Of a stretch of 64,000 nucleotides of DNA, positions 1 through 51,719 are shown in pieces (position 1 is the stretch's first letter; each line of letters begins with the position of its first letter). The notes beneath the pieces were generated by a model. It made no database searches and was not told the DNA's origin. It saw only the letters and a program-made list of their open reading frames with translations. The stretch covers positions 5,472,001 through 5,536,000 of the forward strand of contig OZ244999.1 of NCBI GenBank assembly GCA_965223265.1. Reading direction: 5' to 3'. The position numbers and the translations under genes are program-made. This DNA is from Planctomycetota bacterium. Its GTDB lineage: Bacteria; Planctomycetota; UBA8108; SXIK01.

Positions 1-231
1 TAAAAACAGCGCAAATTCAGGGCTTTCTGCGGGCCTTCACATCGGTACGAAACTTGCGATCTTTTGTTCGGCTCGAGACGAGAAGAGGGAAGAGAGAAGA
101 GAGAGAAGCGGAGAGGAGGAAGCACGATGAGGGAAAGAGGTGACGCAGTAGGTCTTGGTGGAGCGACGACGCTGGCGCGGCGTGGGAGTGAAGCGCAGGG
201 AGAGGGAGAAGGGCTCAGCTTTCCGAGGATC

Positions 232-411
232 ATGTGGTACTCAGAGCTGGAATCGCAACTGCGCTCGTACGACGATCTGTCGGCGCAATTGAGAGAGCTG
301 AGGGGGTTCCTACTCGAGCTGCCGCGGGACGAATTCGCGCTCTATCGAGACCGATTCAACAAACTTGCTTCGCGTTACAACCGCTTGGCGAAGTCGAAGA
401 AGGCTCCCTGA
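232..411 (+). CDS. small helical hypothetical protein (59 aa)
   Basis: ATG at 232 is in frame with the 64..411 ORF and preceded by GAGGA; the product MWYSELESQLRSYDDLSAQLRELRGFLLEL... looks amphipathic-helical, while the upstream extension is low-complexity purine-rich sequence. Confidence 0.4.
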   Translation: MWYSELESQLRSYDDLSAQLRELRGFLLELPRDEFALYRDRFNKLASRYNRLAKSKKAP

Positions 412-538
412 TCGCGCCCCTCCCATTCGCGCGCCTCTTCGCCCTCTATGCTATGCTGTCAGTCGCGGTCCGCTTTCGAGATAGTGTGTTCTAACTCGAG
501 GCGCGACCCACACCCTCAAGCAATGGGAGGCCGACAGC

Positions 539-1402
539 ATGACGTCAGTGCGAGACACGTACAAGTTTGACGAACTCACTTGGCCCGAAATCAACGAAGC
601 GGTCCGTCTCCGAAAGATCCCCATTCTGCCGACCGGTTCGGTGGAGCAACACGGTCACCACTTGGCGCTCAACGTCGATCACGTCTGCGCTAGCGCAGTT
701 GCGACCGAAGCCGCGCGTCTGAAGCCTGAGTACAGCCTCGTGCTGCCACCCGTCACCTACGGGTATGTCCATCATGTCATGGACTTTCCCGGATCGCTGA
801 ACATCCACTTCGAGCACTTCATTCAGTACGTTCTCGACATCTGCAAGAGCCTCGCCTACCACGGCTTCAAAAAGATCGTCATCGTCAACGGCCATGGTTC
901 CAACCACCCGCTGGTGGATCTGGTCAGCCGCCGCGTCATCGTCGAGACGGACGCGAGCTGCGTCTTCTGCAGCTGGTGGCAGCTGCTTCAAGTCGATCCG
1001 GAGTTCAAGAACAAGTGGCGTGACAGCATTTTTCCCGGTGGCTGCTCACACGCCTGTGAGCTCGAAACTTCGATGATGCTCCACCTGCGGCCAGACTGTG
1101 TTCGCCAAGAGAAGATCAAGAGCGAGATTGCGCGCACGAACAAAGTCGGCTCCAAATTCATTTGGGGTGACCTGTTCGGTAAAGGCCCGCTCGGGCTTCT
1201 CGAGTGGACAAGCCAGTACACAGAGACCGGCGTCATGGGTGAAGCGGAGAAGGCTACCGCTGAGAAAGGGCGTCTTGTCTTCGAGGAGGCGAGTCGTCAA
1301 CTTGCTGCTTTCATCGAGGAATACCACGCGCGTTCGATCGAGCCTCGACAAGCGCACCAGGCTGAGGCTCCGACGATGGAGCTCAATTTCCCGACCGACT
1401 GA
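539..1402 (+). CDS. creatininase/creatinine amidohydrolase family protein
   Basis: LPTGSVEQHGHHL..D, VNGHGSN and HACELETS metal-binding motifs; GGAGG RBS. Confidence 0.9.
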   Translation: MTSVRDTYKFDELTWPEINEAVRLRKIPILPTGSVEQHGHHLALNVDHVCASAVATEAARLKPEYSLVLPPVTYGYVHHVMDFPGSLNIHFEHFIQYVLDICKSLAYHGFKKIVIVNGHGSNHPLVDLVSRRVIVETDASCVFCSWWQLLQVDPEFKNKWRDSIFPGGCSHACELETSMMLHLRPDCVRQEKIKSEIARTNKVGSKFIWGDLFGKGPLGLLEWTSQYTETGVMGEAEKATAEKGRLVFEEASRQLAAFIEEYHARSIEPRQAHQAEAPTMELNFPTD

Positions 1403-1628
1403 CGTCGATCGAACCGCCGCACGCGAACGGTGAGATCGCCGAGAGCGCCGCAGCCGCCGCAGCCGCCGCCGGACCGTCGTTGTGGTTGCCGGACAGCTCT
1501 CGTTCGATGAGACGGCTAGCAGCCGCGATCATGTTTGTCGTTTGCGACGAAGAAGCAGCCAGGTAGCATGTCTGGGGTCAAGCGCGACCAGACGCGGCAG
1601 GTGAGGCGCGGCATGAAGCTCAGAAAGA

Positions 1629-2747
1629 ATGAAGATCACAGACGTCGAAGCGATCCATCTACGCATTCCAGACGTTGAAGAGATCGCCGACGGCACTCAA
1701 GACGTTCTCGTGATCAAAATTCACACCGATGCGGGCGACGTCGGGATTGGTGAAGTCAGCAGTCAATCCTACGTCTGCAAGGCGATCTTCGAAGCGCCGC
1801 GCTCAGCGGCTCGGCGACATGGCTTGAGAGAGATTTTGGTCGGCCAGGAGATCGACGATGTCCGCGCGCTCTGGCGACGCATGTACTACCAGACGAATCG
1901 CTACGGTCGCCGCGGCGCAGCACTCCACGCCATCAGCGGCGCCGACATCGCACTTTGGGACCTCTACGGCAAGCAGCGCGGCCTGCCTGTCTGTGAACTG
2001 CTCGGCAACCCGCGTCGCAAACCGATTCGCGCCTACGCGAGCTTCCTCTTCGGAACGACGCCCGACGCCACGCGCCAACTCGCCGTCGACGCGGTCGACC
2101 TCGGGCTGACGGCGGTGAAGTTCGGCTGGGGACCCTTTGGCCAGGACGAAGCGACCGACTTGGCGCACGTCGCCGCTGCCCGCGAAGCGCTCGGAGCTGA
2201 TCGCACGCTCATGGTCGACGCAGGCTGTGCCTGGGACGCAGACACCGCACTGGCGCGCGCTGAGCGCCTCGCAGAGTTCGACCTAGAATGGCTCGAGGAA
2301 CCTCTGACGCAGGATGACCTCGCTGGCTATCGACACCTAGCCGAACGTTCGCCCGTGCCAATCGCTGCCGGCGAGGGTGAAGTGACCCGCTTCGGCTTCG
2401 AGGAACTTGCCGCGTGCGGCGTTCGTATCCTGCAGCCAGATGTCGCGATCTGCGGCGGGCTCACCGTCTGCGAAGAGGTGAGCGAGATTTGCGCGAGGAC
2501 TCGCGCGCGACCGGTCCCCCACTGCTTCAGCACCGGCATCAACCTTGCCGCGTCACTACACTGGATCGCGACCGCGCCGCGCGGCGACCTCGTCGAGTAC
2601 TGCCTGCGTCCGTCGCCACTCATGCGCAAGCTTGTGCGCAACTTGCCGCCACTCGAGGCGGGCCACGTCGACGTTCCAGACGGCCCCGGTCTCGGCATCG
2701 AGCTCGACGAAAGAGTTGTCGAAGAGTTCAGGGTAAACCCATCGTGA
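1629..2747 (+). CDS. mandelate racemase/muconate lactonizing enzyme (enolase superfamily)
   Basis: MKITDVEAI start, AISGADIALWDL.GK, LMVDA, WLEEP, IAAGE and LQPD..ICGG motifs. Confidence 0.92.
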   Translation: MKITDVEAIHLRIPDVEEIADGTQDVLVIKIHTDAGDVGIGEVSSQSYVCKAIFEAPRSAARRHGLREILVGQEIDDVRALWRRMYYQTNRYGRRGAALHAISGADIALWDLYGKQRGLPVCELLGNPRRKPIRAYASFLFGTTPDATRQLAVDAVDLGLTAVKFGWGPFGQDEATDLAHVAAAREALGADRTLMVDAGCAWDADTALARAERLAEFDLEWLEEPLTQDDLAGYRHLAERSPVPIAAGEGEVTRFGFEELAACGVRILQPDVAICGGLTVCEEVSEICARTRARPVPHCFSTGINLAASLHWIATAPRGDLVEYCLRPSPLMRKLVRNLPPLEAGHVDVPDGPGLGIELDERVVEEFRVNPS

Positions 2748-4120
2748 CTCCGTCGGCCCCAGACTCACCTCGACCAACTCGCATCCGCTACGTGGTGCTG
2801 ACACTCGCCTGCCTGACGAGCTTCATCCTTTACCTCCATCGATATGCGTGGGGGGTGATCAAACCCGACGTCAAGGCGGAGTTCGGCCTCGACGATGAGC
2901 AGCTTGGTTGGCTCGACTCCGCATTCAACATCACCTACGCGATCTTTCAGGTTCCGATCGGGCTCCTCGGCGACCTGGTCGGTCCGGCGCTCGTCCTGCC
3001 GCTGATCATTGGGCTCTGGTCAGGTGCCGTGGCGCTCACGTCGTGGGCTGCAGGGTTGTGGCCGCTCGCCGGCGTGCGACTCTTTTTCGGCGCCGCGCAG
3101 GCCGGAACCTACCCTAACTTGTCGACCGTTACGCGTAGCTGGTTTCCTCTCTCATCCCGCACAACTGTGCAGGGCTTCATCGCCTCGGCCTCCGGACGTG
3201 CCGGCGGCGCATGTGCTTCGATCGTCGTCAGCGCGCTTCTGATCGGAGCGCTCGGGCTGTCCTGGCGCTGGGCGCTTGTCGTCATCAGTTTTTTGGGAGG
3301 AGTGCTGGTGGTCGGATATCTCCTTCTCTTCCGGAGTCATCCCGCATTCCACCCTCGCGTCAACGACGCAGAGCGACGCCTGATCTCGGCGGGGGAAACC
3401 GAGGACGACAGCACGCGCAAGAATCGAGACGCCACCAACACTCCCGCCGATAAAAACGATTTGCCGGAATCGACGAATGAGGTTTCGGCACCCACTCGCT
3501 TCACTCGCGACCGCGCCGCATGGATCAGCTTTTCCTTTCTCCTCTTTCACATGTTCGCCAGCGCCTTCGCCGATCAGCTGTACGTCTATTGGATTCCGCT
3601 CTTTCTCGAGGAAGAAAAAGGGCTGAGCAAAACCGCCATGGGCTTCTACGCAAGCCTTCCTCTCCTCGCGGGCGCGCTCGGTGGTCTCTTTGGTGGCGTG
3701 CTCAACGACTGGCTCCTCCGCCTTTTCGGGCGGCGTTTCGCTCGCGCCACCGTTGGACTCGTCGGGAAACTACTCTCGGCCGTGCTCATGCTGATCAGTC
3801 TCCAGTTCGAGTCAGGTCGAGCCGTCATGATCGTGATCGCCTGCAGCAAATTCTTCACAGACTGGAGTCAGCCGACGACGTGGGGTACGGTAACCGACAT
3901 CGCCGGCAGAGCGTCCGGGCGCGTGTTCGGTACGGTGAACATGGTCGGTTCGATCGGCACCGTCATCGCCGGCCCTGTGCTCGGCGGCCTGAAGAAGGAC
4001 TTCGGCTGGAATGCCGTGTTCACCGCTCTTGCCGTCGTCTACGTGGCCGCCGCGCTGGCGTGGCTCGGAATCGATGCGTCCAGGCGCCTGATGGTGCGGG
4101 ATCGCGACACAGAAAGTTGA
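2744..4120 (+). CDS. MFS transporter (ACS/sugar-acid type)
   Basis: GTG start overlaps the upstream TGA (GTGA); about 12 hydrophobic segments; RYVVL..., FQVPIGLLGD, RLFFGAAQAG..P and RSWFP motifs. Confidence 0.88.
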   Translation: MTPSAPDSPRPTRIRYVVLTLACLTSFILYLHRYAWGVIKPDVKAEFGLDDEQLGWLDSAFNITYAIFQVPIGLLGDLVGPALVLPLIIGLWSGAVALTSWAAGLWPLAGVRLFFGAAQAGTYPNLSTVTRSWFPLSSRTTVQGFIASASGRAGGACASIVVSALLIGALGLSWRWALVVISFLGGVLVVGYLLLFRSHPAFHPRVNDAERRLISAGETEDDSTRKNRDATNTPADKNDLPESTNEVSAPTRFTRDRAAWISFSFLLFHMFASAFADQLYVYWIPLFLEEEKGLSKTAMGFYASLPLLAGALGGLFGGVLNDWLLRLFGRRFARATVGLVGKLLSAVLMLISLQFESGRAVMIVIACSKFFTDWSQPTTWGTVTDIAGRASGRVFGTVNMVGSIGTVIAGPVLGGLKKDFGWNAVFTALAVVYVAAALAWLGIDASRRLMVRDRDTES

Positions 4121-39915: not shown

Positions 39916-40205
39916 CGGCAGGCTCCCGGTCGGAGAAAGCGGTGTGGAAGTATACAACAGACGTGAACACGCCCCCGACTCACACGCGCGCGAGTTCCAA
40001 GAACTTCGACGTTGGAGGTTTATCGACTCACCGGTGCCTGGTAAAATTCGCGTTCTACCTGCCGCTGACTCGAATGAACGATTCCTGTACTTCTCGCCGG
40101 CTGGTGGAACCTTTGCGAAGAGCTCTGCGTTCGAAGAATGTTGGTCCAAATTTGACCAAACCAACCGCAGCGATCGAGTCGCCCAGGCTATGGAGACGGG
40201 AATGC

Positions 40206-43200
40206 ATGGGGCGTAAGCTTGCCTCGAACTTTCCAAAACGGCGCGCCGTTTTGTATTTCGTGGTCGCTCTGTTGTCGCGGCCGCTCGATGCGTTGGTGAT
40301 CTCCGAAATCCACTACAACCCGATCGAGGGTCGCCAGCTCGAATTCATCGAACTCACCAACGATGAGCCAACGCCTGAGGATGTTTCCGGGTGGTCGTTT
40401 ACTGAAGGTGTACGCTACACGTTCCCTCCTGGCACCGTCGTATTTGGCGGCGACGTTTTGGTGGTTTGCGCAGATGTTGAGTCCGTCCGTTCGACCTACG
40501 GGATCAACAACGTCGTTGGCAACTTCGACGGCCGCCTCGACGGCAGCGGCGAGCGTCTGACTCTCGTCAATCACGCCGGAGCCGTCATACAAAGCCTTCG
40601 ATACCAGACAGACGGCAAATGGCCTGTAGGCCCCGACGGCGGCGGACACTCCCTCATACTTCGAAGTTTGCACGTCGACACCTCAGAGCCTGAGAGCTGG
40701 ACCCAAAGTCCGGAGCTAGGCGGCAGTCCGGGATTCGTCAACGACCCCGAAGTTCGTATTCAATTCGATGAGGAGGTGCTGATCGAAATCGGCGACGAAT
40801 GGCGGTTTCGCAAAGGCACGTCTCCTTTCTCCGATCCAGAAAACGCGTGGCAGCTGCCCGAGTTCGACGACTCAGACTGGGAGATCGGCCCATCCGGCTT
40901 CGGGTTTTCGGACGACGATGATGCGACCGTCTGGGACGATATGCAGGGGCAGTACGTGTCGGGGGTTGTGCGCCGGACGTTTGAGCTCTCCGAGGAGCAG
41001 TTCGGCGAGCTCGACGCGGTGTTTCTCGACATCAATTTCGACGACGGCTTCTGCGCCTTCATTAACGGTGTCGAGTTCGCCCGCACGAATTGCCCAGAAG
41101 AGCCCTTGTGGAATGAAACAGCACGTGGGTTTCACGAAGCGACGTCGCGCGGCTTCGAGCTCCATGAAATGCAGCGCGAGGACCTCCGCGTGGGGACGAA
41201 CGTGCTCGCCATCATTGGATACAACCGCAGAGTGAACGACGGCGACTTCAGCCTGCTGCCGCGAGTTTTACATCGCCGTTCGATCGTTCCGCAGCTCGGC
41301 CCTACACGCGCGCTGTTTTTCAACGAGCTGTATCGTGGAAGCGAAGCTGAAGCCGGCTGGATCGAGATCTACAACGCTGAGAGTGTCGCCAGAGATCTCT
41401 CGGGTTGGAGCTTGGCAGCCGATCCCCAGCAACTCGAACGGTTCGTGTTCGGCGAAGGGAACGCAATTCCGGCGCTAGGATACCTCGTTGTCGACGCAAA
41501 CATCGCGAATGTCGCCCTGACCGCCAACGAACCGGTACAGCTATTCCTCTTCTCTCCGGATGGATTTGTTGGCGCGGCCGCAACCTTCGATCGGCTCGTT
41601 CCCGACGGGATGGCCCCTGAGCTCTTTTCTGAAGCGCGATTTCCCGACGGCAACGGGCGCAGCTGGCTCACGCCGACACGAACGCCGGGAGCGACCAACG
41701 ACGTCCCTCGCGTGACGGACGTCGTCATCAATGAAATCCACTATCATCCGCCGGAAGAGCGGGCTGGCGAGTTTCTCGAACTGTACAACCGTGGCCAGGC
41801 CGCTATTGATCTCAGCGGGTTTCGTTTCACAAGAGGCATCGACGTCACTTTCGCGGGCGGGACGGTTCTAGCACCCGGTGGTTACCTGGTGTTAGCAGAG
41901 GATCCAAGACTGTTACAGCAGACTTACGGCGTCGCCGGTGCCATCGAGTACGAAGGCACGCTTGCCAACGGCGGCGAAAACGTCCGACTTGTCGACACGC
42001 TTGGAAACCTTGTGGATGAAGTGAGGTACTTCGACGGTGGCACGTGGCCCCTATGGGCTGATGGGCGTGGATCAAGTCTGGAGTTGATCGACCCGCACCA
42101 AGACAATGACTTTGCCGCAGCATGGGAAGCGAGCGACGAGACCGGCAAGGCACCGTGGGAACAGCATTCGTTCCACGTGCCACGTCTCGGCAGCTCGAGT
42201 GAGACCGAACTGCAGATCATGCTTGCTGAGCGTGGCATCTGCCACATTGACGACGTCTCTATAACTGGCGACGCGTTCGTCGAATCGCCCCTCCTGCCGG
42301 CGGGCGCTGAGTGGCGGTTTCGCAAAGGTACCGGCCCGTTCTCTGATCCGGCCAACGCGTGGATGATGAGCGAGTTCGACGACTCATCGTGGGAGACTGC
42401 CGTTGCCGGGTTTGGATACGGCGATGAAGGTCTTGGAACGATTCTCGACGACATGCAAGAGAACTACAACACGCTTGCCATCCGAGCGCGCTTTGAAATG
42501 ACGCAGGAGCAGCTAAGCAACGAACGGCTCGAATTCTACTTCGGAATCTATTACGACGACGGATACTGCGCTTTCTTAAACGGCGAGCTACTCGATCGTC
42601 GCGGCTGTTCACGCAATCCGGCTTGGGATGACACCGCTCGCATTGGGCACGAGGCCGACGAGGAGATTACGATCCGAATTCCGGAGGAACGACTGCGAGT
42701 TGGAGAGAACGTCCTCGCAGTTCTCGGTGTCAATCGAGTCGCTCGCGTCGCCCCAGGATCCCCGGAATTCGCAGCCGACGACGATTTCACACTTCACCCA
42801 CGAGTCTTCGTGCTACGCCCCGAAGGGCGCAGCCAAAACCTCCTCGCCAACCCCGGTTTTGAGGAAGACACTGCGACGTGGCGATTTGAAGGGACCCACT
42901 CGCGTAGCCGCCGAGTGCAGGACGATGCAAACGGCGGCAGTGCATGTCTTGAGATGATCGCGACTGGGAAGGGCGACATGACATGCAATCGGATCGAGAC
43001 CGACACCGAGCCACGATTGACAGCTGACCGGCGGTACGACATCTCGCTGGCGACACGATGGGTGCGCGGCTCCAGCCTGCTCCTCGTGCATGGCACCTTT
43101 TCGCCAGGCGAGTGGCCTGGGACGCGCGACTCCAACCTCTCCGGCAACGAGATCGCACAAGCCATCCGCATGGCCATACCCGACGATCTCGGCACCCCCG

Positions 43201-45215
43201 GCGCTGAGAACAGTGTGCGTCGACTGCTGCGAGAGTTCACCGAAAACGGCAACCTCGGCCCGCTGATTGCTGATGTCGAACATGAACCGATTAATCCGAC
43301 GCCTGGTGCAACAGTAACGGTTCGCGCCCGTGTGGTCGACTCCGATGGCATCGGTAGCGTCCGCATCCTGTACCGTGAAGACATCGATTCAGAGGAACCG
43401 TTGGATTTTCTATCCATCGAGATGTCCGAAGTCGCCGGCAGCCGCGACCCGTTGACAGGCGTTGCTACCTACGAAGGCCAGATTCAGCCGATAGAAACGA
43501 GTCAAGTGATCTTCTTCGTCGAAGCAGAAGACGCGTTTGGCACGCAAGGCACTTTCCCGTTCGATGCTCCGGAGAAGACACTCGTCTATCGCTACGCGGA
43601 TCCGTTCCCACACCGGATTGAGGTTCTATTGCCCTTAGCGGAGTGGAGCGAGCTTCGCACGCGGAGACTCCACTCCAATGACTTGGTCGACGGAACAGTC
43701 ACCTACGCGGGCGAGCAAATCTTCTACAACGTGGGCGTACGCTATCGCGGCAGCCCGTGGGGACGTGGCACGCTCGAAAGTATTCGTGTTCGTTTCCCGG
43801 ACGATCGCCTCTACAAGGGAACGCGCCGCGACATCAACATTTCGAATCGCGACAGGACGGATGGTGCCGCGTACCCGGTCGTCGGCCGTAGTGGCAACCG
43901 TGACTCTCCGGTGCCAGTAGCGGACTACAAGTACGTCGCTACTCGGTTCAACGGACGATCGTTCGGTACGCCGGGTGTTTTCGAGCCGTATGATCGCACG
44001 CTCCTTGACAAATGGTATGGACGAGATGTCACGCGCGACGCGGTACTTCTCAAAAGCATCGGCCGACTTCTGTTCAGCGACGGGTGCTCCCGCACCGCTT
44101 GGGACGAAGCCACGATGGCGCATCGCAATGAGAACGCAGAGAACTACCGATTCTACTGGTTTCATAGCATTCATCAGACGCGCGACAACTGGCAACCATT
44201 CATCGACGCGACGCGAATAGCTGACGGACGCGTCACATCAGACGAGGACTTCGACGCGGAGTTCGAGAGCGTCATTGACGTAGAAACCTTTATTCGTGGG
44301 CTGATGCCACGAATCCTCATGTCCGATGGCGACGGACTCTTCGTCGGCAATGGGCACAACGGATATCTGTTCTGGGATCCGTCCGATGGTCGGTGGGAGT
44401 ACTTTCCGTTCGACATGGGCCTCGGATGGGGAGGCACACCGACAAGTCTATTCTCCGTTCGAGATCGTGTCGTGCGCAGGGTGCTCGCGCATCCCCGCTC
44501 ACAGCGTACGTACTACCGAGTGCTCAACGAGTACTTGAACAATTACTGGTCGGAAGAACGAGCCGGTCCCTTTCTCGATGCGCTGCAGGAGCAATCCAAC
44601 AGCGTAGGAACGCAGCAGAAGGCGTTCATACGAGCAAGCAATCCTCGTCTCTTTCGCCTCATAGAACCCTTCGTGAATGCGGAGCTGCGCATCTTGACGA
44701 ACCAGGGCGAAGACTTCAGCGTTGGCACGCCGACGGTCACGCTTTCTGGCGAAGCGTCGACCCTGATGACTCTATTCACCATTCGGCTGAACGGTGGTGC
44801 GCCGCAGGCGTTCGTGCCTGTGTGGACCTCGGCCCTTCAGTGGACGACGACCCTGCCCATGAGTGGCGACTCACTGATGGTTCAGATCGATGGATTCGGG
44901 GTGGACGGCGTTGCGCTGGGGAGCGCTGGAATCACCATTCGGCGGGGCCCGCTGCGCGAGTTCATCCGCGGTGACGTCAACGACGACAACTCGCTCAACA
45001 TCTCTGACGCGATCGAGGCGCTGCTGCATCTCTTTCGCGGTTTCCCGATTGCCTGCCCTGATGCTGCTGACTTCGATGACAGCGGCAACGTTGATCTCAG
45101 CGACGCACTTGGCGTATTGGGGTACGCGTTTCGAGACGGGGACCCACCGGCCTCTCCTTTCCCGGAGCGTGGCGTCGACATCACGGACGACCCGCTGGAG
45201 TGTCGGAGCGAGTAG
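40206..45215 (+). CDS. multi lamin-tail domain, CotH-kinase-like and C-terminal dockerin-like surface protein
   Basis: ISEIHYNP..EFIEL.N, FNEL..WIEIYN and INEIHYHP..EFLELYN; GVRYRG...HN.YL...PFDM CotH-like region; FIRGDVN.D...NISDA...C.DAADFDD.G..DLSDA. Confidence 0.88.
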   Translation: MGRKLASNFPKRRAVLYFVVALLSRPLDALVISEIHYNPIEGRQLEFIELTNDEPTPEDVSGWSFTEGVRYTFPPGTVVFGGDVLVVCADVESVRSTYGINNVVGNFDGRLDGSGERLTLVNHAGAVIQSLRYQTDGKWPVGPDGGGHSLILRSLHVDTSEPESWTQSPELGGSPGFVNDPEVRIQFDEEVLIEIGDEWRFRKGTSPFSDPENAWQLPEFDDSDWEIGPSGFGFSDDDDATVWDDMQGQYVSGVVRRTFELSEEQFGELDAVFLDINFDDGFCAFINGVEFARTNCPEEPLWNETARGFHEATSRGFELHEMQREDLRVGTNVLAIIGYNRRVNDGDFSLLPRVLHRRSIVPQLGPTRALFFNELYRGSEAEAGWIEIYNAESVARDLSGWSLAADPQQLERFVFGEGNAIPALGYLVVDANIANVALTANEPVQLFLFSPDGFVGAAATFDRLVPDGMAPELFSEARFPDGNGRSWLTPTRTPGATNDVPRVTDVVINEIHYHPPEERAGEFLELYNRGQAAIDLSGFRFTRGIDVTFAGGTVLAPGGYLVLAEDPRLLQQTYGVAGAIEYEGTLANGGENVRLVDTLGNLVDEVRYFDGGTWPLWADGRGSSLELIDPHQDNDFAAAWEASDETGKAPWEQHSFHVPRLGSSSETELQIMLAERGICHIDDVSITGDAFVESPLLPAGAEWRFRKGTGPFSDPANAWMMSEFDDSSWETAVAGFGYGDEGLGTILDDMQENYNTLAIRARFEMTQEQLSNERLEFYFGIYYDDGYCAFLNGELLDRRGCSRNPAWDDTARIGHEADEEITIRIPEERLRVGENVLAVLGVNRVARVAPGSPEFAADDDFTLHPRVFVLRPEGRSQNLLANPGFEEDTATWRFEGTHSRSRRVQDDANGGSACLEMIATGKGDMTCNRIETDTEPRLTADRRYDISLATRWVRGSSLLLVHGTFSPGEWPGTRDSNLSGNEIAQAIRMAIPDDLGTPGAENSVRRLLREFTENGNLGPLIADVEHEPINPTPGATVTVRARVVDSDGIGSVRILYREDIDSEEPLDFLSIEMSEVAGSRDPLTGVATYEGQIQPIETSQVIFFVEAEDAFGTQGTFPFDAPEKTLVYRYADPFPHRIEVLLPLAEWSELRTRRLHSNDLVDGTVTYAGEQIFYNVGVRYRGSPWGRGTLESIRVRFPDDRLYKGTRRDINISNRDRTDGAAYPVVGRSGNRDSPVPVADYKYVATRFNGRSFGTPGVFEPYDRTLLDKWYGRDVTRDAVLLKSIGRLLFSDGCSRTAWDEATMAHRNENAENYRFYWFHSIHQTRDNWQPFIDATRIADGRVTSDEDFDAEFESVIDVETFIRGLMPRILMSDGDGLFVGNGHNGYLFWDPSDGRWEYFPFDMGLGWGGTPTSLFSVRDRVVRRVLAHPRSQRTYYRVLNEYLNNYWSEERAGPFLDALQEQSNSVGTQQKAFIRASNPRLFRLIEPFVNAELRILTNQGEDFSVGTPTVTLSGEASTLMTLFTIRLNGGAPQAFVPVWTSALQWTTTLPMSGDSLMVQIDGFGVDGVALGSAGITIRRGPLREFIRGDVNDDNSLNISDAIEALLHLFRGFPIACPDAADFDDSGNVDLSDALGVLGYAFRDGDPPASPFPERGVDITDDPLECRSE

Positions 45216-45506
45216 CCTCTTTCGTCGCCGCGCCGCGCAAGCCGCATGGACCAGGTAGTCGCGGACGCCGAGGACTTAGAGAGAACGCTTCGGCAAGAGA
45301 GTTTGGCCGTGCGTCGTTGACGCCAAGCTCGACCGCGTCGATACTCAACGGTCTTGCAGATGACGCGCGTTCGTGGTGGTCGAACTGGGCGCGGAGAGAC
45401 GAGTTTTCGGCTCGAAGCACGGATTCAAACGAGCCTGTCTAGCAATGGCTGAGTGGCCAGACCGAGGCGGCCTGGAGTTGCGGTCGGTCACGCATCAGAG
45501 GTGCGC

Positions 45507-45821
45507 ATGATTCTTACAAATGTCGAAAGCGTTCCGGGGCGATCTATCGTCCAGTCCTTCGGATTGGTGCAGGGCAGCACGATACGAGCGAAGCATGTGG
45601 GACGAGATCTCATGGCTGGGCTGAAGAATATCGTTGGTGGCGAGTTGTCCGGCTATACCGAGCTGTTGCGCGAATCGCGTAGGCAGGCGACGGACCGCAT
45701 GATTTCGGAGGCTCAAGATTTGGGCGCCAATGCGATCGTCAATGTTCGCTACTCCACTGCAGCGGTCACTCAGGGTGCGGCGGAAATTCTGGCGTACGGC
45801 ACGGCAGTTTTGGTGGAATAA
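45507..45821 (+). CDS. ybjQ: YbjQ (UPF0145) family protein
   Basis: GLVQGSTIRAKHVGRD..AGLKNIVGGEL.GYT.LL..SR..A..RM...A..LGANAIV.VR. Confidence 0.92.
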   Translation: MILTNVESVPGRSIVQSFGLVQGSTIRAKHVGRDLMAGLKNIVGGELSGYTELLRESRRQATDRMISEAQDLGANAIVNVRYSTAAVTQGAAEILAYGTAVLVE

Positions 45822-45956
45822 GTGCTAAGTCCCACAGTATCTGGCGCGGAAATCCCAGATTAAATGGCATGGTGCTGATTCGCGGGTGCGAGATGCGATT
45901 TGCGAGGCGAGAAGGCGCGGGTCGTCGTGTCCCGGACGGCACGACGACCCGGGGAA

Positions 45957-46274
45957 TCACGAAGGGCGAGGCGTGGCGCGAGCGTCACCGCGACGATCGC
46001 GGAGCTCGGCGAGGAACTCGACGGCGTCGACGAAATTCAGCCGCTTGACGATCATGACCAGGTCGATCGGGTTGAAGTTCGTCTCGCAGCGAAAGCAACG
46101 CGCGAGGTTGGTGGACGCCTTCGTCGCGGTGTTGAATTCGCGACACCGCGGACAGAGGAAGCGCACGTAGCCCTCGGAGATTTTCGCGGGGACGCCGAGC
46201 AGATCGAGGAGCCACGCGATCGGTATATCGTTTCTCAACGACCGCAGGAGCTTGCCGGAGAATCGTCCTGTCAT
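45957..46274 (-). CDS. stand-alone primase-type (CHC2-like) zinc-finger protein
   Basis: FLCPRC...NLARCFRC..NFNPIDLVM.....F.DAV.FL resembles the DnaG Zn-binding domain; ATGA coupling with the upstream gene. Confidence 0.8.
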   Translation of the reverse strand: MTGRFSGKLLRSLRNDIPIAWLLDLLGVPAKISEGYVRFLCPRCREFNTATKASTNLARCFRCETNFNPIDLVMIVKRLNFVDAVEFLAELRDRRGDARATPRPS

Positions 46275-46564
46275 GCGACGCCACCTCCACCGCTCGGCGC
46301 CTTCAAATATCGGATTCGTTGCAGGCTCTCGAGATACTCTTCGAGGACGATCTGGAGCGCTCGCAGCTGAGCGCCCAAGGCGGCGAGATAGGCGTCTTGC
46401 TCGGTGTAGGAGGAGCGTTGCGTGTAGTCGAAGTCGAGATCGGGGTACGCGGCGTTCAGAGCGAACAGGGCGATCTCGAGGTTCGTCGCGAGGGTCATCA
46501 AAACGGCGAGCTCAGGATACTCGGCGAAGTCGTTGACTCGAGGCATCAGGGTCTTGTGGAACAT
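46271..46564 (-). CDS. small helical hypothetical protein (transposon accessory gene)
   Basis: 97 aa, GGAG RBS, lies between the ATPase and the Zn-finger gene. Confidence 0.72.
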   Translation of the reverse strand: MFHKTLMPRVNDFAEYPELAVLMTLATNLEIALFALNAAYPDLDFDYTQRSSYTEQDAYLAALGAQLRALQIVLEEYLESLQRIRYLKAPSGGGGVA

Positions 46565-46583
46565 GGCGCGTCAGTCTCCGTTC

Positions 46584-47375
46584 TCAGGGCAGATGGAACT
46601 CGGGGGCGGTGTCGTTGACGAGCGCCTCGGAGATCTTCTGGACGTTCTTGCTCGCGGCCTGAATGAGGCAGGCGGTGGCGATGTTGTTGATGCGCCGCGG
46701 CACGCCGCTTGAGTAGTCGTGGATGAGCGACTTCGCTTCAGGCTCGAAGACTTTCTGCGAGGCGCCGGCTGCGCGCATCTGAAAGTCGATGTACTCGACC
46801 GTCTGCTCCTTGCTGAGCGGCGGCACGTGGTAGCGCACGCTGAGCCGATGCGTGAGATCGGCGTGGCGCGCTCGGGTAAGCTCCTTTCTCAGGGTCTCTT
46901 GTCCGCTGAGGAGGATCTTCAATGGCGGGCCGTCCTCGAGTCCGGAGCTGACCAGAAGTCTCAGATCGGTGAGCGACTCCGAAGGAAGCAGGTGCGCTTC
47001 ATCGATGACGAGGATTGTCGTGTGCTCGTTCGCCCCGACGCGATCCAGGATCTGGAGGAAGAGCCGCTCCTTGCCACGGCGGGGCTGCTCGCCGAGGCTG
47101 GAAACCAGGAGCTTCAGAATGCCGTTTGCCCCGACGTAGGTCAGCGAGAGATAGATCGGGTCGTAGAGGTTGCGGCTCAGCGAGCGCACGAAGAGCTTCA
47201 CCAGAGACGACTTCCCCACCCCGGTGAGTCCGGTCACCAGGCCGATCGAGCCCGACTTGGCGAGGTACTCCAGTCGAGCGAGTCCCTGGGTGATGCGCTC
47301 GTCGGAAAGAATCTGCTCGACGGGCGCGCGCTCGAGAAAGGGCTGCGTCGTCATCTTGAAATGGGTGGTGAACAT
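46584..47375 (-). CDS. ExeA/MuB-like AAA+ ATPase
   Basis: HF.MT.QPF start, Walker A GLTGVGKS, Walker B VIDEAH, LSGQ and SGVPRRIN; TGATG coupling to the transposase. Confidence 0.92.
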   Translation of the reverse strand: MFTTHFKMTTQPFLERAPVEQILSDERITQGLARLEYLAKSGSIGLVTGLTGVGKSSLVKLFVRSLSRNLYDPIYLSLTYVGANGILKLLVSSLGEQPRRGKERLFLQILDRVGANEHTTILVIDEAHLLPSESLTDLRLLVSSGLEDGPPLKILLSGQETLRKELTRARHADLTHRLSVRYHVPPLSKEQTVEYIDFQMRAAGASQKVFEPEAKSLIHDYSSGVPRRINNIATACLIQAASKNVQKISEALVNDTAPEFHLP

Positions 47376-48937
47376 CAGTCCTCCTTTCTGCCTGCGAGTC
47401 GTTGAAGCTCGTAGGCGATGTAGGGAATGGATTTCTCCGGAGCCTTCTCGAAGGCCCTCAGCAAGAGGACTTCGGTGAGGCTGGGAGTACGGTTGTAGAA
47501 CTTCTTGAGTTCCTCGAGCTCCTCGGCGGTGAAGCTCGAGAGGGCGCCCTTGCGCCCCATGAGCCGGCCGAGAAGGCATGCGAAGTCGGTGAAGGGCCAC
47601 TGGCGAGAGGCGATGACACGACGGTAGTCGATCCCCTGGGCGCGCTTCTTGAGCTCCTCGTCGTGCTCACGGCGAAGAAGCTCCAGATAGTTGTGCTTCG
47701 CTTTGGCGGGAGGGGCGGGAGCACCGGCGTCCTCGCCCTCTTCGCGCTCGTGAAGGACGCCCTTTCCGAGGTACTCTTCGTTGCTGGAGTAGATGAGAAC
47801 CGTGTCGGGCGCGGAGAAGGGATCGTAGCGGACTTCGACCTTGTCACCGCGCAGACTCTTGTCGACGCGATAGAAGCGGCGATCGAGCTGGACGTCGGAG
47901 AAGTCCGGGTGAACGCGCCGCGTCTCGCGGCACATGAAGAACTCGGTGACGCGCTGAATGTCGACGTGTCGGATAGGCCGTTTGAGGCCGGCCTCGGCTC
48001 GTGCCTCGGGTGTTTCGCCGGTCTCGGTGTTGACCTGGCGGTGGTAGGCCACGGTCTTCCAGGAATCGAAGCTTCCGTTGAGCGAGTCGAGAGTGAGGAT
48101 CTCGCCGGCTCTGACCTCGGCCTCGAACTGGCCCTGTATCGTCTCGATGAGTCGTTCGACGAGACCACCCGGTGGCGGATCGCCCTTGCCGCGATGGATG
48201 AGCCGGGTGACAACGGCAAGGCATGCCGCCTTGAGCGCTTTGGAGATATAGACCTTCGCCTGATCGACATAGAGCTCGTCCGAAGCGCCGTGCTTGGCCC
48301 ACGCCCGCAGCAAGCAGTCGATCAAGACCTCGAGATTTTGCCGAAGGTAGTAGCGCCCCTCGACGAGCGAGCGGCTGTAGCAGTCGATGAGAACACAGAG
48401 GAAGGTGGGGACGACTTCGCCGTCGTGCAGCACGTAGGGTCCATCGGCGAAGTCGCCGACCCAGAGGGCATGGGTGGAGTCACGAGTCCAGCGTTTCCGG
48501 ACTTTCCTCCTCTCGACACCGAGCTTCAGCCGCGTCGCGCCGGCGATCTTGAGGTAGCGGAAGAGGGTCGAACGCGGAATGGTCTTTCCGTGCTGAGCCT
48601 GGAGGAACTTGTTGATGGCGAAGTGGGAGCGCAGTGGCTGATCACGCTTCAGCTCGACGGCTTTCTCGACGAGCTCTTTGCCGTGGGCACGCGGTTTCCC
48701 GCGATCGCTTCGCGGCCTGCGGGCAAGACCCTCGAAGCCCTCCTCGCGATAGATGCGAAGCTTCCGCCTCAGGGTCGAAAGAGCCGGCTTGCGTCGCGAT
48801 CCGTCGGGAAAGATGCGCTCTTCTTTGGCGAGCTCGCGGAGAAATCGCGCGGCTTCCTCCTCCGGCACCTCGCCGATGACGACGGGCTGGAGAAGAGCCG
48901 CCCAGAAGATAGCCCAATCGAGATCTTTCGCTTTCAT
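47375..48937 (-). CDS. Mu-like/rve DDE transposase with C-terminal Mu domain
   Basis: HTH LSTLRRKL..Y...G..GL....RSD.G; LWVGD, IDCYSR, YVDQ and LVER catalytic core; VEVRYDP; ATG 48937 after GAGGTG. Confidence 0.92.
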   Translation of the reverse strand: MKAKDLDWAIFWAALLQPVVIGEVPEEEAARFLRELAKEERIFPDGSRRKPALSTLRRKLRIYREEGFEGLARRPRSDRGKPRAHGKELVEKAVELKRDQPLRSHFAINKFLQAQHGKTIPRSTLFRYLKIAGATRLKLGVERRKVRKRWTRDSTHALWVGDFADGPYVLHDGEVVPTFLCVLIDCYSRSLVEGRYYLRQNLEVLIDCLLRAWAKHGASDELYVDQAKVYISKALKAACLAVVTRLIHRGKGDPPPGGLVERLIETIQGQFEAEVRAGEILTLDSLNGSFDSWKTVAYHRQVNTETGETPEARAEAGLKRPIRHVDIQRVTEFFMCRETRRVHPDFSDVQLDRRFYRVDKSLRGDKVEVRYDPFSAPDTVLIYSSNEEYLGKGVLHEREEGEDAGAPAPPAKAKHNYLELLRREHDEELKKRAQGIDYRRVIASRQWPFTDFACLLGRLMGRKGALSSFTAEELEELKKFYNRTPSLTEVLLLRAFEKAPEKSIPYIAYELQRLAGRKED

Positions 48938-48977
48938 GATCACACCTCGCATGGGGCGAGCGAGGCGTGATTCTCGC

Positions 48978-49646
48978 TCACGCCCAGGCTGCGGAGGTTG
49001 CCAAGTCGGGGAAGATCGATCGGCCGAAGAGGGAACGGAACACCTGGTCGATCGAGAGAGCTCGAAGTGCCGCGACGAGAGTGTCCCGCCGTGATTCGCT
49101 TCGGTACTTGGCTGGACGGACGGCGAAGACCTTGCGGAAGATGTCGGACCTCGCCGAGCGCTCTCGGATGAGGCGGAGAGCCTCCAGGAGCGTGGCGTTG
49201 AGAGAGCGAAAGAACGAAAGCCAACGATGAAGTGTTGAGTGCGCGAGGCTGCGCTCGTCGATCGCTCCCCTGTCGTCACCCTCGTGGAAGACGGGCATGT
49301 GTTCGACCTTGACGGCTTCGCGATACGAAAGCTCGTCGATCTGGAGGTAGCGCCGAGCGTGATCGAAAACGCAGTCGCGAACGTAGCGTTTCCCCGGCAG
49401 CGCGAAGGGCGGGTAGAGCGTGAAGGAGCGCTTACACAGAGGACACTTCCAGCGACTCAGAAGCGACAGGACAGGTTCGACCAGACGCCTGACGATAACG
49501 AGGAACACGCGCTCTCGGTGACCGCGGTAGCGGAACCGATCTGGCTCCCCGCTGCAATTCGGGCAGCGGTTACAGGTCGGCTGGATCTCACGGCGGCGAA
49601 CAGCTTCGCCATAGCTCTGTATCGCGTTGACCAAATGGGGTAGCAT
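48978..49646 (-). CDS. zinc-ribbon + HTH protein (DUF6431-like), first gene of the transposon
   Basis: CPNC...RWKCPLCKRSFT.YP.F..P.KRY and AHSTLHRW. Confidence 0.75.
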   Translation of the reverse strand: MLPHLVNAIQSYGEAVRRREIQPTCNRCPNCSGEPDRFRYRGHRERVFLVIVRRLVEPVLSLLSRWKCPLCKRSFTLYPPFALPGKRYVRDCVFDHARRYLQIDELSYREAVKVEHMPVFHEGDDRGAIDERSLAHSTLHRWLSFFRSLNATLLEALRLIRERSARSDIFRKVFAVRPAKYRSESRRDTLVAALRALSIDQVFRSLFGRSIFPDLATSAAWA

Positions 49647-49903
49647 CGCTCTCTCCGTACGGGGACTTGCGGAGAGAAGTGCACCAACACCGGTCTCTCC
49701 GCTCCCCTCTTTACTCGAGGTGAGGCGAGGAGTCGAGCGAAGGTCCAGGGCGCAGCGTCGAACGGGGGGCGCGGGGTAGGCGGGGTATGATCGGACGGTC
49801 GGTTCGGCGGGGTATGCCGGGGCGTTTCCGGGTCAGTGAATCTGAGACTCGTCGCTGCTCACGAGCCAGAGTTTGTGGGACTCAGCAAATAAGGGAGCTC
49901 ACG

Positions 49904-50365
49904 ATGACAATGTTCCAGATCCTCGTGAACCTATGGCCTGTGCATCTGCTCGTGCTGGCTTGGTTTACCGGCCGGATGCTCGAGCGCCATCACTACCAAA
50001 GTATTCAGGACCGCGAGATGGAGTCGGCGGAACGGCCCGCGACATCGATGCGATCGCTGCCGCTGGAGCGGTGTGCAGGGACGACCGATCTGGCTGTGGG
50101 CTCAGTGGTCATTTCCGTCGATCACTTCAAGCGTTTCCTCGGCTCTTGGCGCAAGATCTTCGGCGGCGAACTTCGGGCGCATGTTTCGGTGATCGATCGC
50201 GGCCGGCGCGAGGCGATCCTCAGGATGAAGGAATCTCACCCCGACGCAGACATGTTCATCAACCTGCGGCTTTACACGTCGTCGATCGTCAACCGGCGTC
50301 AGAACGCCAGTTCGGCTGTTGAGGTCGTCGCGGTCGCGACGGCGATTCGTTTCGAGCGATCGTGA
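49904..50365 (+). CDS. YbjQ-related protein with N-terminal membrane anchor
   Basis: G...ERHHY.SI..RE, GSVVISVD.FKRF....R.IFGG and DRGRREAILRMKE; GGGAG RBS. Confidence 0.85.
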   Translation: MTMFQILVNLWPVHLLVLAWFTGRMLERHHYQSIQDREMESAERPATSMRSLPLERCAGTTDLAVGSVVISVDHFKRFLGSWRKIFGGELRAHVSVIDRGRREAILRMKESHPDADMFINLRLYTSSIVNRRQNASSAVEVVAVATAIRFERS

Positions 50366-50807
50366 TCCTGCCCTCTTCCGTCCCACCCCAGGGTCGTCCC
50401 TCCGCGTCGTCCGCTCCCAGGGTTGTCAGCCGAGCAGCCGAGCCGAAGCGGATAGCCGATCGCCGATCGCCGATCGTCGGTTCCCCAGGATTCGCTCGCG
50501 GCTCGCGCTTTCGCCTTTCATCAAGCGTTTCCCTTGTCAGGATCCCGTCGCAGCGGCCCAGCTAGTCAGTCGACCTAATGCGCCTATACAGAGTGCCCTT
50601 AGTTTGTTCTGTTTCGAAGGTTGCGACGGCATCTGCGTCGCTTCCGCTACACTGTCCGAATCCGGACGTCCGATTTTGACATCCGACCACCGACGACCGA
50701 AAGGGTTTCGTCGCGGCAGGCAGGAAGCACGCACGATGAGAACGACTTACGCACAATTCTGCGCGTACCGCAGTTCGTGGAACGCGGTTTGCCCAGAAGT
50801 GCCGCTG

Positions 50808-51719
50808 ATGACAGCCCCACGACAAGTTATCCCCGGAACTACTTACATGGTCACGAGACGCTGCTCACAGCGTCAATTCCTCCTTCGCCCTTCGAAAGAG
50901 GTGAACCAAGTCTTTCTTTATCTTCTCGCCTACTCCTCAAACCGCTTTTCCGTGGACGTCCATGCATACTGTGTTCTGAGCAATCACTACCACTTGATCG
51001 TTACAGACCGCCTCGGCAATCTGCCGGCGTTCATGCAACTCTTGAATTGTCTAGTTGCACGAGCCTTAAACGCTTACTATCGACGCTCGGAAAATATGTG
51101 GTCCCCTGGCTCTTACAACGCGGTAGCGCTCGTGGGAGAAGAAGACGTGATCGACAAGCTCATTTATGTCCTATCCAATCCGGTTGAAGCAGGTTTGGTC
51201 TCGCATGGTGAGCATTGGCCCGGGCTTCGTTCGTCGCCGCGCGACTTCGGAAGCCATCGTGCGGTAGAACAACCGTCCTTCTTTTTTCAACCCGACGGCG
51301 ACGCGCCTGATAGGGCAATCCTGAGTATTTCTTCGCCGCCGCGCCACGAGGGTTCCTCAGAAGACGAATTCATGAATTCGATTGAGGAAAAGCTCGACGC
51401 GAGGGAAGCCGAACTCCGAATTCGACAAACACGAAAGGGAAGAGAATTCCTCGGAGCCAAATCTGTCCTGAAGCAAAGCATCCAGACGCAAGCACGGAGT
51501 ACAGACGCCGGTTCTCGGAGAAAACAAATAGTTCCTCGGTTCGCCTGTCGAGAAAAGCAGAAGCGCGTCGAAGCGCTTGCCAGATATCGGCAATTTCTTA
51601 GAGAGTACCGCGACGCGCTCAGAGATTTCTGCGGAGGTCTACGGAACGTTGTATTTCCATACGGAACGTACTGGATGCGCGTTCAATTTGCGGTCCAATG
51701 CGCGTCGATGCCGCCGTAG
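50808..51719 (+). CDS. Y1/HUH tyrosine transposase (RAYT/TnpA-REP-like) with C-terminal extension
   Basis: PG.TY.VTRRC..R.FLL, AYCVLSNHYHL (HUH), catalytic Y in YVLSNPV.AGLV and FPYGTY tail; visibly more AT-rich than its neighbours. Confidence 0.88.
   Translation: MTAPRQVIPGTTYMVTRRCSQRQFLLRPSKEVNQVFLYLLAYSSNRFSVDVHAYCVLSNHYHLIVTDRLGNLPAFMQLLNCLVARALNAYYRRSENMWSPGSYNAVALVGEEDVIDKLIYVLSNPVEAGLVSHGEHWPGLRSSPRDFGSHRAVEQPSFFFQPDGDAPDRAILSISSPPRHEGSSEDEFMNSIEEKLDAREAELRIRQTRKGREFLGAKSVLKQSIQTQARSTDAGSRRKQIVPRFACREKQKRVEALARYRQFLREYRDALRDFCGGLRNVVFPYGTYWMRVQFAVQCASMPP

Follow-up and report, generated by a model that had tools for sequence, protein, structure and literature searches.

A compact, multi-copy DDE transposon of Planctomycetota with an AAA+ ATPase and two putative zinc proteins, and its probable place in a distinct family

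The element described here lies at 45823-49887 of the window, by which we mean the whole 64,000-nucleotide (nt) stretch of DNA analysed (positions 5,472,001 to 5,536,000 of contig OZ244999.1, assembly GCA_965223265.1, from a Planctomycetota bacterium). It begins TGCTAAG at 45823, finishes CTCAGCA at 49887 and is bordered by a perfect 6-bp duplication, AATAAG; an earlier note on this DNA had described these TG...CA ends and the duplication, and its coordinates were exact. All five genes lie on the minus strand and two of their junctions are translationally coupled, again as anticipated: a single base serves both the stop of the transposase gene and the start of the ATPase gene (TGATG, 47377-47373), and the stop of a small open reading frame (ORF) overlaps the start of the last gene as ATGA (46274-46271). 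The features, with lengths of proteins in amino acids (aa), are as follows:

45817..45822, no strand: left target-site duplication AATAAG, within which the YbjQ-family gene upstream has its TAA stop codon
45823..49887, minus (all genes): whole transposon, 4,065 bp; ten genomic copies of exactly this length, and a separate unitig
45823..45848, no strand: terminal inverted-repeat arm at the gene-distal end (TGCTAAGTCCCACAGTATCTGG...), from the inverted pair and the conserved terminal motif
45851..45868, plus: second, inner instance of the end motif on the gene-distal side, AATCCCAGATTAAATGGC, from sequence reading and an equivalent site in relatives
45919..45950, minus: perfect 11-bp stem GGGTCGTCGTG / CACGACGACCC with a 10-nt loop, directly 3′ of the last gene, from sequence reading
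45957..46274, minus: gene 5, stand-alone DnaG-primase-type zinc-binding domain protein, 105 aa (CxxC...CxxC), from Pfam and profile alignment
46271..46564, minus: gene 4, small ORF of 97 aa, no known family, subclade-specific
46584..47375, minus: gene 3, AAA+ ATPase of ExeA/AAA_22 type, 263 aa, MuB/TnsC-like fold, from Pfam, PHROG, Walker motifs and a predicted model
47375..48937, minus: gene 2, DDE transposase, 520 aa, from Pfam, PHROG and invariant DDE residues
48978..49646, minus: gene 1, DUF6431-family zinc-ribbon protein, 222 aa, with a probable helix-turn-helix (HTH; HSTxxRW), from Pfam, Atlas and invariant cysteines
49771..49815, minus: three strand-specific repeats, GCGGGGTA(G/T) on the plus strand, (C/A)TACCCCGC on the gene strand, from sequence reading
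49832..49849, minus: second, inner instance of the end motif on the gene-proximal side, reading AGTCTCAGATTCACTGAC on the minus strand, from sequence reading and relatives
49862..49887, no strand: terminal inverted-repeat arm at the gene-proximal end, from the inverted pair and the conserved terminal motif
49888..49893, no strand: right target-site duplication AATAAG, with the ATG of the YbjQ-family gene downstream 10 nt away

The terminal inverted repeat is the longest of the 128 inverted pairs returned by the repeat finder and is imperfect, as first described, but it measures 26 nt (81% complementary) rather than 23 bp. Its gene-distal arm (45823-45848) is a predicted terminal binding site for the transposase, and the second copies of the end motif inside each end (45851 and 49832-49849) lie where they had been placed. 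The hairpin at 45919-45950 may be terminator-like, and hairpins judged by eye occur at the equivalent position in relatives; it was not called by the terminator scan because a T run is absent, the scan of the element returning one weak terminator-like site, within a gene. The promoter scan of the element yielded no sigma-70-type sites where shuffled sequences lead one to expect 0.4, and is thus uninformative.

The source genome, a single contig of 9,179,496 bp (60.8% G+C), contains ten full-length matches to the element (1-4065 of 4065, ~100% identity), all exactly 4,065 bp long with 0-1 mismatch. Each of the ten has its own, different and perfect 6-bp duplication (in element orientation AATAAG, GGTCGG, GCGATT, TATAGA, GTTAGC, CCAAAC, CGAAAG, GGTAGG, CAAAAC and GCTGGA, the window copy and two further copies being read on the plus strand). 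The copies vary at one position only, which is G in the window copy and in locus L002 and A in the other eight, with A the majority base in sequencing runs; the difference is synonymous, since the transposase and the other proteins are 100% identical in copies with either base. In all four public sequencing runs, kept as contigs, the element forms a unitig of its own, 4,065 bp long (4,066 in run X4), at a depth well above that of its flanks: 99.3 vs. 6.1-8.5 in X1 (~12-16x), 46.2 vs. 2-4.3 in X2 (~11-23x), 121.7 vs. 10.5-11.5 in X3 (~11-12x) and 23 vs. 2-3.6 in X4 (~6-12x). These runs may include the source sample of the assembly and are therefore not fully independent support. The earlier note had read the insertion as intact and recent and had suggested a search for further copies and the length of their duplications; ten near-identical copies, every one with a 6-bp duplication, bear this reading out. 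We consider it likely that the element is an autonomous DDE transposon, currently or very recently active, belonging to a distinct cross-phylum family within the Mu/Tn552/Tn5053/Tn7 superfamily.

The transposase consists of an N-terminal HTH, an rve catalytic core, a Mu-transposase C-terminal (Mu-C) barrel and a C-terminal tail of ~130 aa that is conserved among relatives. Pfam detects Mu-transpos_C (7.3e-8; 32.7 bits, cut-off 21.7), rve (2.8e-7) and HTH_32 (3.9e-6), and the protein matches PHROG 310, a transposable-phage transposase, over most of its length (8.6e-29). Residues D162, D225 and E261 are invariant in 28 transposase sequences; in the alignment with ShCAST TnsB, D225 and E261 fall on its FYTD and GGVVER motifs, where we take the corresponding residues of TnsB to be catalytic. 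ShCAST TnsB is also the best match by sequence among solved structures (2.5e-11), the match spanning the barrel and the latter half of the catalytic core. The insertion sequence (IS) family models of NCBIfam all score the element's proteins under their own cut-offs. For the transposase, the IS481 model (NF033577) comes first (104.3-106.1 bits vs. a cut-off of 224; E 7.9e-30, model positions 28-280 of 284), followed by ISNCY (38 vs. 250 bits), IS3 (28.5 vs. 160 bits) and IS21 (NF033546; 21.8 vs. 160 bits).

The ATPase encoded by the next gene matches Pfam AAA_22 (1.7e-17) and, over most of its length, PHROG 296, a 'DNA transposition protein' (2.5e-25). Its Walker A (G49, G52, G54, K55) and Walker B (D125, E126) residues are invariant across the ATPase alignment. 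In Foldseek comparisons of a predicted model (mean confidence, pLDDT, 88.4), the best two-sided template-modelling (TM) scores were those of ShCAST TnsC (7plh; E 2.3e-11, TM 0.68/0.68) and the MuB filament (8xvb; E 3.6e-11, TM 0.66/0.70). The IstB model of NCBIfam (NF038214) gave 13.2 bits vs. a cut-off of 200, and Pfam TniB gave no match at E≤0.1. A complex prediction of the ATPase with the primase-type zinc-finger protein scored 0.01, which is no usable model either way.

To see how widely this gene set is shared, relatives of the transposase were collected from several sources. At least 1,283 were found at E≤0.001 among 8,000 candidates scored, the top match being 75% identical; nearly all are on contigs of 2-5 kb, as expected because multi-copy elements break assemblies, which is also how these elements make themselves felt in practice. 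A scan of species genomes with the single transposase protein found no relatives, whereas the profile scan succeeded, giving 169 relatives, of which 79 loci were retained, and a metagenome scan added 17 loci. The 169 relatives from species genomes span Planctomycetota, Thermodesulfobacteriota, Chloroflexota, Gammaproteobacteria, Cloacimonadaceae and others. The 79 genome loci and 13 of the 17 metagenome loci (four with 32-34% transposase identity were excluded) make 92 pooled loci, which collapse to 66 non-redundant transposase genes; presence counts are based on these and are given over testable loci. In a plasmid collection, 517 records matched, none with ≥80% query coverage and all below 60% identity, and these served as distant comparators only.

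The ATPase gene is present at 59/59 testable loci, the DUF6431 gene at 53/53 and the zinc-finger gene at 36/38, where it lies directly 3′ of the ATPase gene in 34 of the 36. The small ORF, on the other hand, is found at only four of 38: between the ATPase and zinc-finger genes in L126 and L128, and 3′ of the zinc-finger gene in L029 and L134. In L129 and L141, shorter contigs from the closest subclade, it also lies 3′ of the ATPase gene. The small ORF thus takes two different positions, and the suggestion that all five genes may be core machinery is not supported. From these counts, the core as read from the sequences is one of four genes (DUF6431, transposase, ATPase and primase-type zinc protein), three of which extend across a much wider superfamily. 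At more distant DDE+AAA loci with 30-35% transposase identity (four from the same phylum, together with Cupriavidus pBB2 and Rhodococcus pDK2), a DUF6431 gene is found upstream in 6/6, above the Pfam cut-off in 4/6, so the order DUF6431-DDE-AAA holds down to 30% transposase identity. The window element has the arrangement of this unnamed superfamily: a DUF6431 gene directly upstream of an rve transposase gene, then an AAA_22-type ATPase gene.

The two loci without a zinc-finger gene, L031 and L036, are close kin with an unrelated ORF in its place. In the sub-lineage formed by L031, L036 and L052, the replacement is an ORF of 95-120 aa starting MKVY(V/L)GI. The copy in L031, the only one scanned, has no Pfam match at E≤0.01; the start of the ORF may resemble that of IS110-type transposases.

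Four other genomes contain multi-copy elements of the family, of 3,790, 4,321, 3,716 and 3,694 bp. Duplication lengths, scored by script for copies with both ends found, were:

Desulfoferrobacter suflitae DRH4, 7 copies: 6 bp in 4, 7 bp in 2, 5 bp in 1, none in 0
Desulfatiglandales metagenome-assembled genome (MAG), 10 copies: 6 bp in 8, 7 bp in 0, 5 bp in 0, none in 2
delta-proteobacterial MAG, 7 copies (in two further loci both ends could not be located): 6 bp in 4, 7 bp in 1, 5 bp in 0, none in 2
genome G132, 4 copies: 6 bp in 0, 7 bp in 0, 5 bp in 0, none in 4

Together with the source genome this makes 38 copies, with duplications of 6 bp in 26, 7 bp in three and 5 bp in one, and none in eight. 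Clean simple insertions thus make up 30 of the 38 copies, although no nuclease or resolvase is encoded. In 11 non-redundant elements the ends keep the terminal motif T(G/C)CTA.GTC(C/T)CA and, ~29-40 nt inward from each end, a second related site (sites of ~20 bp), the two-site layout described for the window copy.

Some copies and ends depart from this pattern. The gene-proximal end starts TC, not TG, in five of the 11 non-redundant elements (L034, L036, L039, L061, L062), which would give a transferred 3′ end ...GA instead of the usual ...CA; this boundary is confirmed by the duplications in D. suflitae. Two inverted copies in G132 have swapped flanks (TCTTAA...ACCGGG at L025 and ACCGGG...TCTTAA at L027), an arrangement that would fit either a 1.7-Mb inversion between the copies by homologous recombination or a replicative inversion. 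In the Desulfatiglandales MAG, L078 is 5,393 bp long vs. 3,716 bp, with ~1.7 kb of extra DNA near the gene-distal end; this is probably a nested insertion, since the 6-bp duplication is still present.

The two proteins at either end of the operon both have the marks of zinc binding. The first, nearest to the DUF6431 cluster of the Atlas (score 0.99), matches the Pfam family under its cut-off in the window copy (2.8e-4) and above it in relatives. Residues C28, C31, C68 and C71 are invariant in 22 sequences, along with many basic and aromatic residues; its predicted fold (mean pLDDT 60, predicted TM-score 0.25) is too poor for fold comparison. The last protein matches Zn_ribbon_DnaG of Pfam under the cut-off (E 1.5e-4, 22 bits vs. 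24.9), and its family profile aligns end to end with the solved zinc-binding domain of DnaG, 1d0q (1-91 to 1-91, E 5e-4). It has CxxC where the primase has CxH, lacks the polymerase domain and keeps C41, C44, C60 and C63 invariant in 25 sequences; we found 1,314 relatives, of 57-184 aa. Since neither alignment contains an invariant acidic residue, we read both proteins as putative DNA-binding factors rather than enzymes. The small ORF has no Pfam, NCBIfam or PHROG match and a best Atlas score of 0.79. Its homologues (36-52% identity) occur in the close relatives L126, L128, L129 and L141, with those of L029 and L134 lying 3′ of the zinc-finger gene, and it is best read as an accessory gene of a subclade and not part of the core.

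A further sequence feature appears to go with the zinc-finger gene. The three repeats of the window copy (49771-49779, 49780-49788 and 49807-49815) lie between the inner end site and the first gene, and such CCCGC repeats, read on the gene strand, are confined to the gene-proximal end. In twelve elements with the zinc-finger gene there are 44 copies, where the frequency within their gene bodies would predict ~4, with only two in the opposite orientation, while the two complete elements without the gene (L031, L036) have none; three truncated contigs, which fall in neither group, have 3, 1 and 3. One of the accessory zinc proteins may bind at these repeats, whose position could suit autoregulation or the distinction of the two ends.

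The family's profiles were compared with fetched reference proteins, a database so small that only the ranking of the bit scores counts. With the transposase profile, DUF6431-linked elements came first (169 and 167 bits), then a resolvase-linked Sphingomonas element (95), a Tn552-like Listeria element (60), a Tn5053-like TniA (34.5), IS21 (9.6) and MuA (5). With the ATPase profile, the DUF6431-linked elements (148 and 105 bits) were followed by MuB (29.7), the Tn552-like ATPase (13.9), TniB (3.9) and IstB (~1-2). In a tree of 23 transposases the family forms one side of a branch (SH-aLRT, an approximate likelihood-ratio branch support, 88), and the Tn552-like, Tn5053-like and Sphingomonas sequences form a clade (99) that groups with distant DUF6431-linked ones (88). 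The tree, though weak, is in line with a distinct clade; it leaves the sister group unsettled, because references for IS481, IS3 and TnsB are absent from it and 8 of its 20 inner branches are open.

Among the closest known counterparts are uncharacterised DUF6431+DDE+AAA cassettes, such as those of Clostridium sp. JS66, Cupriavidus necator pBB2 and Rhodococcus DK17 pDK2, which share the first three genes in the same order. The Cupriavidus and Rhodococcus copies are those that score 167-169 bits with the transposase profile and 105-148 bits with the ATPase profile; they differ from the element in being only ~30% identical and in having no primase-type zinc gene detectable by tblastn or profile. 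These cassettes bear on the question of whether the family is already catalogued in ISfinder or TnCentral under another name, in which case its biology would be the same and nothing about it new. The wider trio has been met by annotators in the passages concerned: a 2026 preprint reports 15 copies of the cassette in Clostridium sp. JS66 but does not go on to analyse it as a transposon (bioRxiv 10.64898/2026.08.16.744336), and a table of PMC12323340 has a DUF6431 gene beside a DDE integrase. On the other side, 120 listed relatives bear only the names 'transposase InsO family', 'putative transposase' or 'DDE-type integrase', the NCBIfam models fall short of their cut-offs, and searches of the literature with the family's proteins and domains plus transposon terms found no relevant description of it, DUF6431 appearing only in that cassette passage and that table row. 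The family is apparently unnamed; ISfinder and TnCentral lay outside the search, and a prior name in one of them is unlikely, though by no means negligibly so.

A second possibility is that the element is a Tn552, Tn5053 or Tn7-like transposon proper, replicative, which has lost its resolvase or TniQ. The resemblance to Tn552 and resolvase-linked elements is real: they have a Mu-C DDE transposase of ~480-520 aa followed by an ATPase of ~265 aa, and TG...CA ends with two binding sites each, and they reach 60-95 bits with the transposase profile. Tn552 itself makes 6-7 bp duplications. The Listeria element, which is called Tn552-like by its architecture only, Tn552 being absent from the comparison, has a recombinase, a 482-aa transposase and a 269-aa ATPase. 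Unlike Tn552, the present element has no resolvase, res site or cargo, adds DUF6431 and the primase-type zinc protein, and is of low similarity. Neither a serine nor a tyrosine recombinase domain was found among its five proteins, and 4,065 bp leave no room for a further gene.

With the Tn5053/Tn402/Tn7-like elements, including type V-K CRISPR-associated transposons (CAST), the element shares ShCAST TnsB as best transposase match, the TnsC fold (TM 0.68) and arrays of end sites. Tn7-like elements make 5-bp target duplications, whereas 5 bp was found in one of 38 copies here and 6 bp in 26; a TnsB-type transposase with a Mu-C barrel is nonetheless present (Mu-transpos_C over its cut-off, ShCAST TnsB 2.5e-11), and a TnsC/TniB-type regulator is suggested by fold, the sequence signal being weak (TnsC E 0.42, TniB 3.9 bits). 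A Mu-C transposase, an AAA+ ATPase and arrays of ~20-bp end sites are indeed what Tn7, Tn5090, Tn5053 and Tn552 have in the account of Benler et al. (PMC8649781), where Tn7-like elements are defined by TnsB, TnsC and TnsD/TniQ with end arrays; by the definition given there, the family differs in having no TnsD/TniQ selector. No TniQ, TnsA or recombinase domain was detected in the five proteins with Pfam and NCBIfam, hhalign of the DUF6431 and zinc-finger alignments against one TniQ gave probabilities of 0.3% and 0.6%, and there is no fixed attachment site. The earlier note was therefore right that the element is not strictly Tn7-like. A single loss of resolvase is also hard to reconcile with the resolvase-less four-gene set being the conserved state in 66 non-redundant relatives, and we regard this explanation as very unlikely.

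Phage Mu is a further comparator, with which the element shares its PHROG 310 and 296 matches; for the ATPase, MuB scores highest among the named references of the profile comparison and also matches by fold. It differs from Mu phages as a 4-kb element with exact ends and no phage genes, whose transposase profile gives MuA 5 bits; Mu makes 5-bp duplications, the element 6-bp ones.

Alternatively, the element could be an IS481-family insertion sequence in which the transposase alone moves passenger genes. IS481 is the best NCBIfam match of the transposase, which resembles that model in its N-terminal HTH and catalytic core, and IS481 makes 6-bp duplications. The score is, however, less than half of the 224-bit cut-off, and the transposase has a Mu-C domain and the conserved ~130-aa tail. 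IS481 is a single-gene element, against four or five genes here with an obligatory ATPase partner, and passengers would not persist as the ATPase (59/59) and DUF6431 (53/53) do, down to 30% identity; this explanation is highly improbable. The earlier placement between IS21/IS481 and Mu/Tn7 holds in that the transposase stands between the IS481 type and the Mu/Tn7 type, with its Mu-C barrel and ShCAST TnsB match, but not for IS21, whose models fail. An IS21-family element, IstA/IstB with extra ORFs, is refuted by these scores (21.8 vs. 160 and 13.2 vs. 200 bits, both missed widely), as the note had concluded, even though the end sites are reiterated and the DDE transposase gene is translationally coupled to that of a ~260-aa ATPase behind it. 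Genuine IS21 copies of this genome reach 226 and 246 bits with the IS21 model and at most 9.6 bits with the family's profile, and the present element adds the two zinc proteins. On the sequence evidence, then, the family is distinct within the Mu/Tn552/Tn7 superfamily and does not belong to IS21, IS481, Tn7/Tn5053 or Tn552.

Several observations weigh against this assignment or against the roles proposed below. Eight of the 38 copies have no matching duplications, and recombination or another pathway must therefore also act. Archaeal Orc/Cdc6 proteins, rather than MuB or TnsC, top the Foldseek list by E-value for the ATPase, whose sequence match to MuB and TnsC is weak (E 0.26 and 0.42), and MuA reaches only the 5 bits given above. 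The tree is weakly resolved, with very long MuA and IS21 branches. The co-variation of CCCGC repeats with the zinc-finger gene amounts to one evolutionary event, L031 and L036 being close kin, and L025 has the gene but only one repeat. Finally, the roles of all the element's proteins are predictions from homology.

For a distinct, autonomous transposon of this kind we propose the following mechanism, modelled on the Mu, Tn7 and Tn552 paradigms, from which end pairing and target marking by the ATPase are taken. The transposase would bind the terminal and inner sites, pair both ends and attach their 3′-OH groups to phosphates of the target that lie 6 bp apart on the two strands, now and then 5 or 7. 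The ATPase would polymerise on target DNA like MuB or TnsC, pass the target to the transposase through the conserved C-terminal tail of the latter and activate it through the same tail. The two zinc proteins would be DNA-binding accessory factors, with a possible part in regulating the promoter of the element or in the choice of ends or targets. No second-strand nuclease or resolvase is among the element-encoded proteins, and the 5′ strands could be processed either replicatively or by nick-join-repair. A bolder and rather doubtful proposal is that the stand-alone DnaG-type zinc domain represents a new class of transposition factor, which would read the CCCGC repeats, or else single-stranded DNA, be it at forks or at the joint of strand transfer, and so couple strand transfer to host priming and replication, with DUF6431 as the third universal subunit of an unrecognised MuB/TnsC-type transposon superfamily. 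If that were so, a compact element without TnsA-type nuclease, resolvase or TniQ could still make clean simple insertions.

The exact ends, the duplication length and the architecture of the end sites now define the family as a compact (3.7-4.3 kb), cargo-free and cross-phylum one within the Mu/Tn7/CRISPR-associated transposon superfamily. It gives a genomic and mechanistic context to DUF6431, here always the first gene of a DDE+AAA+ transposition operon, and to more than 1,300 mini 'DNA primase' proteins mislabelled by annotation pipelines. The ATPase is easily mistaken for a secretion protein, and an ExeA-family gene beside a DDE integrase is read in this way in a genome paper, in the passage concerned (PMC9679502). 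As a small element with a MuB/TnsC-like ATPase but without TniQ, TnsA or resolvase, the transposon should be tractable for work on minimal ATPase-guided transposition and on the role of the primase zinc domain.

The window copy splits a tandem pair of YbjQ-family genes (45453-45821 and 49904-50365; Pfam YbjQ_1 5.5e-37 and 4.4e-11). It is inserted exactly at the stop codon of the first gene, with the ATG of the second 10 nt further on, and so probably uncouples an operon. The ten sites show only a weak central preference (T at position 3 in 6/10, A at position 4 in 8/10), and target choice is nearly random, with this weak central T/A-A preference. Several of the sites are inside long open frames, so genes do get hit, and ten different insertion sites mean that no fixed attachment site is used. 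GC skew places the origin at ~7.96 Mb and the terminus at ~3.54 Mb; the element's genes are co-directional with replication in seven of ten copies, which is indistinguishable from chance, and insertion directed by the fork is thus unsupported.

Elsewhere in the same genome, at 2,465,298-2,478,793 and 809,091-809,351, are three diverged ORFs for primase-type zinc fingers (65%, 51% and 48% identity), and near 2.47 Mb pieces of a transposase (34%) and of an ATPase (32%) occur among fragments resembling IS21 and IS481. Together they have the appearance of relics left by older elements of the superfamily. Within the window, a very long ORF of 1,757 aa (39942-45215, plus strand) lies upstream of the insertion site, and ~870 bp downstream of the element is an ORF (50757-51716, plus strand) with a weak IS200-like Y1 match (Y1_Tnp, E 9e-4; 19.8 bits vs. 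a cut-off of 23).

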